Positions 35,435 through 38,666 of a stretch of 64,000 nucleotides of DNA are shown piece after piece. Origin of the DNA: an uncultured Ruminococcus sp. (GTDB taxonomy: Bacteria; Bacillota; Clostridia; Oscillospirales; CAG-272). Location: NCBI GenBank assembly GCA_964623635.1, contig CAZUUA010000001.1, positions 35,452 through 99,451 of the forward strand. The letters run 5' to 3'. The position numbers were made by a program, and so were the translations under genes. The notes below the pieces were generated by a model. The model did not search any database and had not been told where the DNA came from. It saw nothing but the letters and a program-made list of their open reading frames with translations. Positions within the stretch are counted from its first letter, which is position 1, and each line of letters starts with the position of its first letter.

Positions 35435-35610
35435 GGCGCCACCGCACAATTCTGATGATGCAGATGCGTCGGCAGATTTTTCGTCAGACAAAACAAATTC
35501 ACCGCAGGCTTACGCTCGTAAGGCAAGGTGGATTTGTGAAGTATGACGGGAAAGATGCAAGCAGATGTGCCATCAAGGCGTTAGCCGTGAATTGTGCGGT
35601 GGTGGCCTAG
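35431..35610 (-). mobile_element. MITE-like element, copy B (172 bp at 35435-35606, flanked by CTAG/CTAG), inverted relative to copy A
   Basis: By hand alignment, the reverse complement matches copy A at 170 of 172 positions. Confidence 0.8.
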
Positions 35611-35762
35611 ATCATATTGTGGTAGGGAACTGCCTTGGCTGTTCCGTGTGGTAGCCTGCACGAACGATATTGTCGAGCCATGGGGGCAACCGACGGAACG
35701 GTCAGGCATCCATATGTCGCACAGAAATTGCAAAAATTCCCCGAAAAATTTCTCGAAACCCA

Positions 35763-35791
35763 TTGACAAATCTGCAGTTATCCTGTACAAT
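35763..35791 (+). promoter_or_regulatory. Sigma-A type promoter of the T-box leader
   Basis: TTGACA (35763-35768), a 17-bp spacer, then TACAAT (35786-35791). Confidence 0.6.
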
Positions 35792-35797
35792 ATCGGT

Positions 35798-36127
35798 TAG
35801 AGGCCATGCGGGAGAGGGTTTGCTTGGCATCGTTCCATGGGAATGTCCATCGATGATATTCTCCAGAGAAGTGGCGGTTGGTGTGAGCCACAGGGAACGG
35901 AAGGCAAAGGTGTAGCTCCCAAGCCGAAGGGAAGAACGTTGGTGTTTGTCCGATCAGTAGAACCCTTCCGTGATTGCTGCGTAAAGGCATACGGCTTGTT
36001 TGAGCCTGAGGGGCGTTTGTGAAAAGCGCAATTTGAGTGGTACCGCGGACTATACATAGAATTTGTTTGGTTCGTCTCAAAGAAACTCCGGTTAGGAGGA
36101 TCTCTTGAGGCGAGCCAATTTTTTGCT
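35798..36127 (+). promoter_or_regulatory. T-box riboswitch leader (tRNA-sensing transcription attenuator)
   Basis: - The T-box sequence AATTTGAGTGGTACCGCGG lies at 36030-36048.
- The antiterminator has a lower helix TTTGAG/CTCAAA, the 7-nt bulge TGGTACC, and an upper helix.
- A competing terminator stem (36069-36083 paired with 36103-36116) is followed by AATTTTTT.
- Upstream are AG-bulge and distal-loop-like motifs AGAGAAG ... GGTTGGTGTGAG (35865-35887).
- A Stem II candidate with AGTAG, and an F-box-like CCGTGA, are also present. Confidence 0.85.
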
Positions 36128-36184
36128 TGTGAACAATACCATCCTAACCATAGAAAACAGAGAGAGCAGAAAGGAACGAGAAGC

Positions 36185-38509
36185 ATGAAAAAACAGATCA
36201 CCGGGCTGTCGTTCAAGATCCAGGAAATGGCAGGCCGTATCAAGGAGCTGCGGGAGATCGAAGGATTCTCTACGGCCGATATGGCATCCAAGACCGGCGT
36301 GACCGAAGCCGAATACATCGCCTGTGAAGCAGGATTGGACGACCTGAACTTTGCCTTTATCTATCGCTGTGCCCTGGCACTGGGCGTGGACGTGACCGAT
36401 ATCATCGAAGGGCAGTCTCCCACATTGGCCGGCTATACCGTGACCAGACGTGGCGAAGGGCAGGAGATCAACCACGCCCATGGTATGACCTACTACAATA
36501 TGGCGCCTTCCTTCAAGAATCGTATTTCGGAGCCTTTGTATGTGGAAATGGAATACGACGAGGAAGCTGCCAGAGCCGATATCGAAATGACCACCCACGA
36601 TGGGCAGGAATGCGATATCGTCATTGAAGGGACCCTGAAGGTGCAGGTGGGTGAGCATAAGGAGATCCTGCACGCCGGGGACACCATCTACTACGACTCC
36701 TCGATCCCCCACGGCATGGTGGCGGTGGAAGGGCAGAAGTGCGTGTTCTATGCCATCGTGCTCAATCCGTCCGGGGCACCGGTGGAAGAATTTTCCATTC
36801 CCGGCGCCGAGACCACCCAGACGCCACGCCGGATCGGCAAGCCGGAGAGCGAACGGATCTACAAGCGGTTTATTTCCGTGACCAAGGACGACAACGGCAC
36901 GCCCACCAAGATCACCTTCCAGAATGCCGACAAGTTCAACTTTGCCTTTGATCTGGTGGACGCCATGGGGACGGAAAAGCCCGATAAGCTGGCCATGCAG
37001 TACGTGGGCAACGACCTGACCGACCGAAAGTTCACCTTTGCCGACATCATGCACGGCTCCGCACGGTGCGCCAACTATTTCACCGCACTGGGCATCCGTC
37101 GTGGCGACCGGGTCATGCTGGTGCTGAAGCGGCACTGGCAGTATTGGTATGCCATGATCGGTCTGAACAAGATCGGTGCCATTGCCATTCCTGCCACCAA
37201 CCAGCTTTTGTCCCACGACTTTACCTACCGGTTTGAAGCTGCCGGTGTGTCTGCCATTCTATGTACAGCCGACGGAGACACCGCACACCAGGTGGATATC
37301 GCCATGGCAGACTATAAGAAGCCTATGACCAAAATCCTTGTCTGTGGTGGTACGGCCGGGGAAGAAAGCCCGGTACAGCGGGAAGGCTGGCACGACTTCA
37401 ACAGCGAATACAGTATGTACAGCAGCCACTACGACCGGCGTGACGATGCACCCTGCGGCGACGATCCGCTGCTGGCCTTCTTCACCTCCGGTACCACCGG
37501 CTACCCGAAGATCGCACTGCACAACCACAAGTATCCCCTGGGGCATTTCCACACCGCAAAATATTGGCACTGCGTAGACCCGGACGGCCTGCACTTCACC
37601 ATCTCCGACACCGGCTGGGCCAAGTCCATGTGGGGCAAGCTGTACGGGCAGTGGCTGTGTGAAGCGGCGACCTTTGTGTACGACTTTGACCGGTTCGATG
37701 CCGCCCACATTCTGCCCATGTTTGGCAAGTACCATATCACCACCTTCTGCGCACCGCCGACCATGTATCGGATGCTGATCAAGGACGATCTGTCCGGATA
37801 TGATTTCTCCAGTCTGGAGCACGCCACCACCGCCGGGGAAGCCCTGAATCCGGAGGTATACAAGCGGTTTGAGGAAGCTACGGGACTGCAGATCATGGAA
37901 GGCTTCGGTCAGTCCGAGACCACCTGCATGATCGGGAACCTGACCGGCGCACCCCACAAGATCGGCTCCATGGGTCGGCCATGTCCCATCTACGACATCC
38001 ACCTGCTGGACAGCGATGGCAAGGACGTACCGGATGGGGAAAACGGCGAGATCTGTATCCGTGTGGCAGATGGCGCACCCTGCGGTCTGTTCATGGGTTA
38101 CTACCAGGACGAAGAGAAGACGAAGGAATGCTGGCACGACGGATACTACCACACCGGCGACCTGGCATGGCGTGACGAAGACGGGTTCTTATGGTACGTA
38201 GGCCGAGCCGACGACGTGATCAAGTCCTCCGGCTACCGGATCGGGCCCTTCGAGATCGAGAACGTGATCATGGAGCTGCCCTACGTGCTGGAATGTGGCG
38301 TATCGGCTGCACCGGATGAGATCCGTGGCCAGGTGGTCAAGGCTTCGATCGTGCTGACCAAGGGCACAGAGGGCACGGAAGAACTGAAGAAGGAGATCCA
38401 GAACTACGTGAAAAAGAACACGGCGCCGTACAAGTATCCCCGGATCGTGGTATTCCGGGACGAACTGCCGAAGACGGTCTCCGGGAAGATCATGCGCAAC
38501 AAACTTTGA
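36185..38509 (+). CDS. Fusion protein: XRE-type HTH + cupin domain + AMP-forming acyl-CoA synthetase (medium-chain/ACSM-like)
   Basis: The N-terminus has an HTH (IKELREIEGFSTADMASKTGVTEAEYIACE) and a cupin domain (HDGQECDIVIEGTLKVQVGEHKEILHAGDTIYYDSSIPHG). From about residue 230 it has adenylate-forming motifs FFTSGTTGYPK, YGQSET, YHTGD and GKIMRNKL. Confidence 0.85.
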   Translation: MKKQITGLSFKIQEMAGRIKELREIEGFSTADMASKTGVTEAEYIACEAGLDDLNFAFIYRCALALGVDVTDIIEGQSPTLAGYTVTRRGEGQEINHAHGMTYYNMAPSFKNRISEPLYVEMEYDEEAARADIEMTTHDGQECDIVIEGTLKVQVGEHKEILHAGDTIYYDSSIPHGMVAVEGQKCVFYAIVLNPSGAPVEEFSIPGAETTQTPRRIGKPESERIYKRFISVTKDDNGTPTKITFQNADKFNFAFDLVDAMGTEKPDKLAMQYVGNDLTDRKFTFADIMHGSARCANYFTALGIRRGDRVMLVLKRHWQYWYAMIGLNKIGAIAIPATNQLLSHDFTYRFEAAGVSAILCTADGDTAHQVDIAMADYKKPMTKILVCGGTAGEESPVQREGWHDFNSEYSMYSSHYDRRDDAPCGDDPLLAFFTSGTTGYPKIALHNHKYPLGHFHTAKYWHCVDPDGLHFTISDTGWAKSMWGKLYGQWLCEAATFVYDFDRFDAAHILPMFGKYHITTFCAPPTMYRMLIKDDLSGYDFSSLEHATTAGEALNPEVYKRFEEATGLQIMEGFGQSETTCMIGNLTGAPHKIGSMGRPCPIYDIHLLDSDGKDVPDGENGEICIRVADGAPCGLFMGYYQDEEKTKECWHDGYYHTGDLAWRDEDGFLWYVGRADDVIKSSGYRIGPFEIENVIMELPYVLECGVSAAPDEIRGQVVKASIVLTKGTEGTEELKKEIQNYVKKNTAPYKYPRIVVFRDELPKTVSGKIMRNKL

Positions 38510-38510
38510 G

Positions 38511-38532
38511 AAAAGGGGCTTGTCCCCTTTTT
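38511..38532 (+). terminator. Rho-independent terminator after the acyl-CoA synthetase fusion gene
   Basis: AAAAGGGGCTTGTCCCCTTTTT. Confidence 0.7.
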
Positions 38533-38637: not shown

Positions 38638-38666
38638 TTGACAAATCCCTGTGGGTGTGGTATCAT
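38638..38666 (+). promoter_or_regulatory. Sigma-A type promoter of the amino-acid ABC operon
   Basis: TTGACA (38638-38643), a 17-bp spacer, then TATCAT (38661-38666). Confidence 0.55.

Follow-up and report, generated by a model that had tools for sequence, protein, structure and literature searches.

The locus described here raises the question of why a gene for an organic-acid-activating enzyme should be placed behind a tRNA-responsive RNA switch. It lies in a stretch of 64,000 nucleotides (hereafter the window) from an uncultured Ruminococcus sp. (GenBank assembly GCA_964623635.1, contig CAZUUA010000001.1, positions 35,452 to 99,451), and the leader and its gene, which are given in window coordinates, are on the + strand. 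A T-box leader at 35798-36124 precedes the gene at 36185-38509, the only open reading frame (ORF) downstream of the leader, which encodes a 774 amino acid long fusion of a helix-turn-helix (HTH) domain, a cupin and an acyl-CoA synthetase. An earlier inspection of the letters (the sequence-only reading) had suggested that acid activation by this protein feeds reductive carboxylation to the amino acid that the T-box senses. Our analysis indicates that the window almost certainly contains a complete, transcriptional class I T-box leader with specificity for valine, and that this T-box probably controls an enzyme that activates isobutyrate for valine synthesis. Many fibre-degrading Clostridia of the rumen and the gut need branched-chain volatile fatty acids (BCVFAs). 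For rumen fermentation, PMC7356843 names isobutyrate as precursor of valine and 2-methylbutyrate as precursor of isoleucine (citing Allison & Peel 1971, Robinson & Allison 1969).

The leader as a class I T-box

A permissive scan of 651 nt (35600-36250) with the covariance model RF00230 found a match at 35824-36082 that covers the whole model (positions 1-219), with 52.5 bits and E = 1.3e-10; by our own rescaling, this corresponds to E ~1e-8 for the whole window. The AGAGA bulge, the GGUUGGUG distal loop and GUGGUACCGCG were aligned to the model with high posterior probability. The covariance-model search proposed in the sequence-only reading was thus borne out in part: the match is significant and spans the full model, but its score stays below the gathering score of 93, a cutoff that reflects curation rather than structure. 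The low score, the lowest among the leaders scored, results largely from a lineage-specific insertion, to which cmscan misassigned the 5' strand of Stem I. Only one of 17 orthologous leaders of the same type reached at least 93 (locus L012, 2701-2939; the other 16 were below), and this subgroup is therefore missed by default annotation with the Rfam 15 cutoff. As an RNA, the leader is a divergent yet canonical class I T-box, an assignment that agrees with the initial claim and is supported by both the RF00230 match and the covariation across 60 leaders described below.

Transcription would start near 35798, downstream of a sigma-70-type promoter (35763-35791) that consists of TTGACA (35763-35768), a 17-nt spacer and TACAAT (35786-35791) and matches the consensus at 11 of 12 positions; comparable near-consensus promoters precede the orthologous leaders. 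Stem I (35802-35925) adopts the canonical architecture in the unconstrained minimum free energy fold of the segment alone (-40.4 kcal/mol). At its bottom, the C-stem (GGC 35802-35804 : GCC 35923-35925) is followed by a kink-turn (K-turn)-like loop of 5/2 nt with a GA motif (35805-35809 with A35921-A35922), defined from conservation counts in the alignment columns, and by the base helix (GGGAG 35810-35814 : CUCCC 35916-35920). Both the C-stem and the base helix show covariation across 60 orthologs, with 99-100% pairing. The specifier loop has a 5' side AGGG and a 7-nt 3' side GGUGUAG (35909-35915), and above it the fold places the upper helix (35819-35825 : 35902-35908). An extra hairpin (35839-35847 : 35855-35863), predicted to be formed by a lineage-specific insertion, is located beside the AG bulge AGAGA (35865-35869). 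This bulge and the distal loop GGUUGGUGUGA (35876-35886) are both aligned to conserved RF00230 positions with high posterior probability, and all five pairs of the distal helix (5' strand within 35865-35886, 3' strand 35887-35891) covary. In known T-boxes, AG bulge and distal loop form the docking platform for the tRNA elbow.

Stem I is followed by Stem II (35926-35968), in which the outer helix GAAGGG 35926-35931 : CCCUUC 35963-35968 shows compensatory changes at five of six pairs and the inner helix at both of its pairs. In the Stem IIA/B region (35975-36006), with the helices 35975-35977 : 35987-35989 and 35993-35997 : 36002-36006, seven of eight pairs are compensatory, and the Stem III hairpin (36013-36029) is present in the centroid structure and in the RF00230 alignment. 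The antiterminator (36032-36081, -14.6 kcal/mol) consists of helix A1 (UUUGAG 36032-36037 : CUCAAA 36076-36081), the T-box bulge UGGUACC (36038-36044), invariant in 60/60 leaders, and helix A2 (GCGGAC 36045-36050 : GUUCGU 36070-36075), in which two pairs are compensatory, including an A-U and a C-G pair of the window. It shares the strand 36069-36081 with an intrinsic terminator (36069-36116) of 14+3 bp, which carries a small hairpin embedded at its tip (-31.9 kcal/mol) and is followed by a U-run (36119-36124). That the antiterminator is far weaker than the terminator is expected for a switch that needs stabilisation by a tRNA. The switch elements listed in the sequence-only reading, i.e. TTTGAG/CTCAAA, the UGGUACC bulge, a 14-bp terminator and the U-run, were all found where it had placed them. 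It had also regarded the fusion as the sole gene before the next terminator, and a second intrinsic terminator (38510-38532) indeed abuts the stop codon, which makes the gene monocistronic.

Conservation and covariation in related loci

Scanning one genome per species yielded 216 loci with relatives of the fusion protein, of which 80 with 66-99% identity were kept; they are labelled L001 etc., and coordinates after a label are those within the locus. Nearly all hosts are metagenome-assembled genomes (MAGs) of rumen or gut Clostridia (Oscillospiraceae, Acutalibacteraceae, Christensenellales, Saccharofermentans), and the carriers include one cultured isolate, Ruminococcaceae bacterium YRB3002 (L025). 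When enough upstream DNA was available, GGTACCGCG was found 80-170 nt before the start codon (74 of 76 loci).

Sixty distinct leaders were aligned with MAFFT (alignment A1). Compensatory changes are numerous in the structures that RNAalifold recovers from this alignment, namely the distal helix of Stem I, Stem II, the IIA/B hairpins and the terminator. An explicit structure, to which the K-turn C-stem, the base helix of Stem I and the antiterminator were added, was then scored on the same 60 leaders: 98.2% of 2391 cells are paired, compared with 87.6% in shuffled alignments, double-sided (compensatory) changes occur at 27 of 40 helix pairs, and the covariation score is 0.406 versus 0.185 in the shuffles. 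The observed values were reached by none of 500 shuffles, and in a control in which the 3' partners were slid by 1-3 columns pairing fell to 34-54%. Covariation supports both antiterminator helices as well as the terminator, and the K-turn of the orthologs is a canonical tandem G.A/A.G motif with a covarying C-stem. The comparison of orthologous leaders that had been suggested as a check therefore supports the structure and, with 27/40 compensatory pairs, yields a register in which the specifier is GUA.

The specifier is a valine codon

The base helix below the specifier loop comprises four pairs, GAAG:CUUC in most leaders, which are 100% paired and compensatory at three of the four positions. 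This covarying helix fixes the register and assigns GUA (Val) at 35912-35914 as the specifier codon, followed by the purine G35915. In alignment A1 (columns 145-147), GUA is present in 58 of 60 leaders; the remaining two have GUC (L074) and AUC, the latter belonging to the leader of a paralog (see below). Over all 76 leaders of the Val-type genes, 75 present GUA and one the synonymous GUC. The base after the codon (column 148) is a purine in 60/60 leaders (54 G, 6 A), while the base before it varies (U, G, A or C). TBDB uses the same frame, with the codon at positions 2-4 of the specifier bulge as counted from its 3' end (PMC7778990). The sequence-only reading had left the specifier undecided between two options, and the conserved register in 60 leaders vindicates its hand fold, which presented GUA in the GGUGUAG loop.

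Its other option was the string GAAGGCA (35900-35906), which would present GGC (Gly) in the classic context GAA-GGC-A. The string is present in the window, but conservation is lacking: L001, which encodes a 99% identical protein, reads GAGAGCA at this site and hence AGC, GGC is absent from all other orthologs, and in the fold the bases lie paired within the upper helix 35902-35908. A shift to the -1 frame would instead give UGU (Cys), followed by A, which can be read in 55 of the 60 leaders. UGU is broken in the other five, whereas GUA or GUC is kept throughout, and the homologous Ile-type leaders give CAU or UAU in the -1 frame, so that only frame 0 is conserved in them (AUC). Bacterial tRNA-Gly and tRNA-Cys carry U73, and tRNA-Val and tRNA-Ile carry A73. 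The invariant UGGU of the T-box bulge implies a discriminator A73, which fits valine or isoleucine and neither glycine nor cysteine. Together, these data leave a specifier other than valine with an almost negligible probability.

The single GUC leader (L074) is located on a contig labelled as a Spirochaetales MAG and hence lies outside the Clostridia, for which horizontal transfer or mis-binning may account.

The fusion enzyme

The target had been described as neither an aminoacyl-tRNA synthetase nor a canonical biosynthesis gene nor a transporter, and the domains found in the 774-residue protein agree with this: HTH_XRE (residues 14-76), Cupin_2 (132-191), AMP-binding (263-640; PF00501, 214 bits) and AMP-binding_C (690-768; PF13193, 74.5 bits). 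The closest solved structure is PDB 3ETC, the medium-chain acyl-CoA synthetase MacsMa of Methanosarcina acetivorans (618 bits, 51.9% identity over 516 residues, with the alignment spanning residues 248-771). MacsMa prefers 2-methylbutyrate, and its alternate substrate pocket depends on Trp259 (PMC10455477). In the window protein, W461 (motif AKYW) aligns with this alternate-pocket tryptophan.

The best NCBIfam model is MbcS (NF047394), with a score of 416 bits that is below the equivalog cutoff of 850; the fusion is thus a relative and not an ortholog of MbcS. MbcS is selective for 2-methylbutyrate and isobutyrate, acts poorly on isovalerate, and its demonstrated function is the supply of primers for branched-chain fatty acid (BCFA) synthesis (PMC10026030). 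Judging from these homologs, the specifiers of the T-boxes and an Ala/Gly difference in the pocket that is described below, the substrate of the window enzyme is most likely isobutyrate.

Paralogs under valine and isoleucine T-boxes

In 44 of the 80 loci, a tandem paralog of ~755 amino acids with the same HTH-cupin-AMP-binding architecture is encoded directly upstream and has its own promoter and T-box (L009-L014, L034, L036-L052 and L056-L080 are among the carriers; e.g. L010:100-2651). All 32 readable T-boxes of the paralogs present AUC (Ile) as their specifier; the base after it is A, C or G and hence not strictly a purine. When the proteins were grouped by sequence similarity and the specifiers were read from alignment A1, protein group and specifier agreed perfectly. 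The 76 Val-type proteins are 63-99% and the 35 Ile-type proteins 63-98% identical among themselves, and identities between the groups are 56-69%.

Seventeen positions separate the two groups, 15 of them in the HTH, linker and cupin and two in the catalytic domain. The specificity DETERMINANTS includes A479 (motif GW-A-K, codon 37619-37621), the strict one of the two catalytic positions, which is Ala in 76/76 Val-type proteins and Gly in 35/35 Ile-type proteins and in MacsMa. Position 479 aligns with V310 of S. enterica Acs, for which the numbering TADVG-W309-V310-T311 was confirmed on 1PG3/1PG4; V310 is a residue reported to line the acetate pocket (Gulick 2003, Ingram-Smith 2006). It agrees with expectation that the larger side chain occurs in the enzyme for the putative smaller substrate, and position 479 is a candidate for the residue that decides between isobutyrate and 2-methylbutyrate.

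The HTH-cupin module (36212-36769, residues 10-195) shows a different pattern. Within the groups, it is 68-74% identical and thus on par with the catalytic domain; between the groups, its identity drops to ~45-57%, compared with 67-84% for the catalytic parts. The H...E...H signature of the cupin is conserved in all 111 sequences, and the only relative of the module in the PDB is 1Y9Q, an HTH_3/cupin regulator. Conservation within and divergence between the groups point to a paralog-specific function, and the pattern suggests that ligand or operator recognition is specific to each paralog. Inspection of ~55 promoter regions by eye for an operator palindrome revealed only the near-consensus promoters. 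Tentatively, the fusions might be bifunctional trigger enzymes that combine acid activation with sensing of a metabolite by the cupin and with either DNA binding or gating of the enzyme; we consider this possible but rather doubtful. If it held, the HTH-cupin would add a second, protein-based layer of control to the paired amino acid-specific T-boxes, and the specifiers would be natural labels of substrate specificity for a widespread and previously unassigned gut and rumen pathway.

No third, Leu-type paralog or T-box was found in the 10-kb context examined, which contained only the Ile/Val pair. Among the 150 best matches of an exhaustive search of 1.84 billion representative proteins, the full-length fusions formed only three clusters: P0121 with GWAK (Val-like), P0122 with GWGK (Ile-like) and P0124, which is 44% identical, has a degenerate A3 motif and carries AWEK. 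The lack of a Leu-type member among those 150 best matches is in line with the poor use of isovalerate by MbcS. P0124 (758 amino acids) is the second gene of an operon (L084:946-7486) in which a T-box with AUC (65.2 bits) precedes a 769-residue fusion, P0124 and a class I/II aminotransferase. With its degenerate phosphate-binding A3 motif and AWEK at the pocket position, P0124 may be a pseudoenzyme or may have a new specificity.

The Val-type genes at L053 (1370-1400) and L072 (2815-2995) do not have a T-box of their own. The gene at L053 begins 22 nt past the stop codon of the Ile-type gene and is therefore probably co-transcribed with it, and the gene at L072 has a plain promoter.

Gene clusters and the direction of the pathway

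The genes downstream of the Val-type ligase in relatives connect it to amino acid metabolism. A P-loop NTPase gene (CbiA/ParA/NUBPL-like) follows directly on the same strand in 47 of the 80 loci; the alpha and beta genes of a VOR-type 2-oxoacid:ferredoxin oxidoreductase come next wherever the fetched DNA extends that far, and a class IV, i.e. branched-chain, aminotransferase (BCAT) is present in 15 of the 80. The complete cluster of L081 encodes an Ile-type ligase, a Val-type ligase, the P-loop NTPase, an AP_endonuc_2 protein, and then Fer4 (delta), POR_N/PFOR_II (alpha), TPP_enzyme_C (beta) and POR (gamma) subunits and Aminotran_4 (downstream parts at L081:12474-17628, and similarly at L012:5292-8018 and L072:5427-7180). 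The alpha subunit scores above the cutoff of the NCBIfam model for VorB, the 3-methyl-2-oxobutanoate dehydrogenase subunit (545 > 399), and the aminotransferase above that for branched-chain amino acid aminotransferase (490 > 307). Of the 19 cluster loci examined, 17 have 0-52 nt between the Val-type stop codon and the gene that follows, and in some the two genes overlap at their stop and start codons. Such gaps and overlaps indicate an operon, and in genomes with the cluster the Val T-box would therefore govern ligase, VOR and BCAT together. If uncharged tRNA-Val induces these three activities, only the biosynthetic direction makes sense.

Some clusters also carry an AP_endonuc_2 (TIM-barrel) protein or a CN_hydrolase protein.

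These operons bear on a different explanation of the target, in which the Val-specific T-box is genuine, but the enzyme mainly supplies branched-chain acyl-CoA primers for membrane fatty acids and plasmalogen aldehydes, like MbcS of Staphylococcus aureus. When valine is scarce, isobutyryl-CoA primers derived from valine would drop, and exogenous isobutyrate would be salvaged for lipids. Work by Allison and colleagues in 1962 is said to have found that ruminococci put much isobutyrate into branched lipids, and isobutyryl-CoA could feed both lipids and valine. The best NCBIfam model of the fusion is a supplier of BCFA primers (PMC10026030), and the gene in the window stands alone, without VOR or BCAT nearby. 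Against this, VOR-cluster genes share an operon with the Val-type gene in 47 of 80 loci, as does a BCAT gene in 15, and starvation-induced VOR and BCAT would be sensible in the biosynthetic direction only. In addition, no FabH or type II fatty acid synthesis (FASII) genes were seen in the clusters, and separate Val and Ile sensors on two paralogs fit amino acid supply more simply. A mainly lipid-directed role is therefore unlikely, and we favour a role of the enzyme in valine synthesis. That acid activation feeds reductive carboxylation to the sensed amino acid, as the sequence-only reading had conjectured for branched-chain acyl-CoA, is strongly supported by comparative evidence, i.e. by the paralog with an Ile T-box and by VorB and BCAT in relatives.

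Proposed mechanism and its weight

By default, the transcript would fold into the terminator at 36069-36116 and, with the U-run, halt RNA polymerase upstream of the gene. Under valine shortage, uncharged tRNA-Val(UAC) would dock on Stem I, with its anticodon paired to GUA at 35912-35914 and its elbow stacked on the platform formed by AG bulge and distal loop. The free 3' ACCA end of the tRNA would pair with UGGU at 36038-36041 and stabilise the weaker antiterminator, which would permit readthrough into the 774-codon gene. Its product, an AMP-forming, short branched-chain acyl-CoA synthetase, would convert isobutyrate to isobutyryl-CoA, which a VOR-type oxidoreductase would reductively carboxylate to 2-oxoisovalerate and a branched-chain aminotransferase would turn into valine. 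The sister enzyme under the Ile (AUC) T-box would serve the equivalent route from 2-methylbutyrate to isoleucine. Within this scheme, the data show the RNA architecture with its covariation and specifier, a conserved pairing of gene and leader, the linkage to VOR and BCAT in relatives and the pocket residue specific to each paralog. We infer that the tRNA binds and causes antitermination, which acid the enzyme uses, in which direction the flux runs and what the HTH-cupin does.

Several observations weigh against this proposal. An Rfam scan of the whole window at the gathering score of 93 gave no match. No tRNA-Val gene, on which anticodon and discriminator could be checked, was found in the window or in the 60 loci. 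By tblastn, the 64-kb window contains no VOR, BCAT or paralog, and the pathway link there rests on orthology, with 66-73% identity to the cluster-type genes. The Val-type gene is solo and monocistronic in ~25 other loci and in the clade of the window (L001-L005), where this is always so. In anaerobes, BCAT and VOR also serve to degrade valine to isobutyryl-CoA; gene content therefore does not set the direction, which follows from the logic of the T-box alone. The conserved HTH-cupin module is left unexplained by the proposal, and a degenerate K-turn together with the extra hairpin in Stem I may affect the regulatory efficiency in the organism of the window.

Peculiarities of the window leader

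The last point concerns features in which the leader of the window differs from its orthologs. In the K-turn, G35808.A35922 is kept, but C35809.A35921 is found where at least 90% of the orthologs have A.G. The loss of the second sheared G.A pair is shared by the clade of the window, including L001, L004 and L005 (C.A or A.A for A.G). On the other hand, the base helix of the window has gained an extra fifth pair, G35810-C35920. The sequence-only reading had noticed an insertion of ~34 nt in the 5' part of Stem I; the insertion itself is real, but the MAFFT alignment assigns it 26 extra columns, which no leader other than those of the window and L001 occupies. Of the three substitutions between these two sequences, two lie in the predicted stem of the hairpin and preserve pairing (G.U to A-U and U-A to U.G), which suggests selection. 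Insertions occur instead in the distal loop in L004 (2650-2700), L005 (2650-2710) and L075, and Stem I thus appears to tolerate lineage-specific insertions at different sites.

In view of these features, the leader could be a relic that is decaying or terminates constitutively, in which tRNA docking is impaired and the gene is no longer regulated by tRNA. The replacement of A.G by C.A in the K-turn, the inserted hairpin and the lowest Rfam score among the leaders scored (52.5 bits) would fit such a state. However, specifier, following purine, AG bulge, distal loop, Stem II, IIA/B, T-box bulge and terminator are intact, the fifth pair of the base helix is a compensating gain, and the inserted hairpin keeps its pairing between window and L001. 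L004 and L005 also do without the second G.A pair and retain everything else. Lineage-specific insertions are, moreover, well documented in functional T-boxes. Decay is therefore very unlikely, and the leader of the window is best regarded as a Val-specific T-box.

Relation to known systems

The mechanism proposed here is conventional. The leader has the canonical architecture of the RF00230 class I T-boxes, such as those of B. subtilis tyrS and glyQS and the Val and Ile T-boxes before valS, ileS and ilv genes, and it shares with them the mutually exclusive UGGN-bulged antiterminator and terminator and, presumably, the logic of induction by uncharged tRNA. It differs in its target, an acyl-CoA synthetase fusion (with a VOR/BCAT operon in relatives) instead of an aminoacyl-tRNA synthetase, an ilv- or leu-type gene or a transporter. 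Furthermore, the 3' side of the specifier loop in this family does not have the usual GAA ahead of the codon, most leaders are below the gathering threshold, and in the window the K-turn is degenerate and Stem I contains an extra hairpin.

The enzyme resembles MacsMa in sequence (51.9% identity), in the equivalence of Trp259 and W461 and in the motifs of the ANL superfamily, and MacsMa prefers the alpha-branched 2-methylbutyrate. MacsMa, however, has neither an HTH-cupin nor a T-box, and it has Gly at the pocket position where the window has Ala479. The selectivity of MbcS for isobutyrate and 2-methylbutyrate matches a family that comprises Val and Ile types but no Leu type; however, MbcS feeds fatty acid synthesis, is not fused to an HTH-cupin and has no reported T-box. 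In BirA, an HTH is likewise fused to an adenylate-forming enzyme, a biotin ligase; there is no sequence relationship, DNA binding by the HTH-cupin is putative here, and no operator was found in the promoter regions inspected. The clusters of the relatives encode an acid-CoA ligase, a four-subunit VOR-type enzyme and a BCAT, as would be needed for the reductive carboxylation of BCVFAs to branched-chain amino acids in the rumen that was defined biochemically by Allison and co-workers.

The novelty lies in the target and in specifiers that act as natural labels for substrate specificity; likely, genes can now also be assigned to a pathway that has been known biochemically since the 1960s. The literature searched, outside of which lay the TBDB and RegPrecise tables and several key papers, contained no T-box on an organic-acid-CoA ligase, no pair of Val and Ile T-boxes before paralogous ligases that precede VOR and BCAT, and no assignment of the BCVFA-activating enzyme to this fusion family. 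The paired T-boxes point to the two paralogous ligases, together with the VOR/BCAT operon of the relatives, as the genes for the rumen route, and specifier plus gene content could serve as a sequence-based predictor of BCVFA use. The T-box regulon would thereby be widened from aminoacyl-tRNA synthetases, canonical biosynthesis and transport to the activation of organic acids, and the HTH-cupin fusion hints at an additional regulatory layer.

Additional observations

Two further matches were dismissed. A c-di-GMP-II riboswitch-like match at 35636-35704, upstream of the promoter, scored 14.3 bits (gathering score 53.5, E = 7.1) and is most likely due to chance, and a match to mir-312 in the permissive scan of 35600-36250 is also attributed to chance. 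In L008, a T-box-like core (TGGCACCGCG, hence UGGC) is present on the minus strand near + coordinate 1416, upstream of a 439-residue ORF; it adjoins a tRNA-Leu gene and has no relation to the fusion family. In the window, the next gene after the fusion encodes the binding protein of an amino acid ABC transporter and is preceded by its own promoter (38638-38666, + strand).

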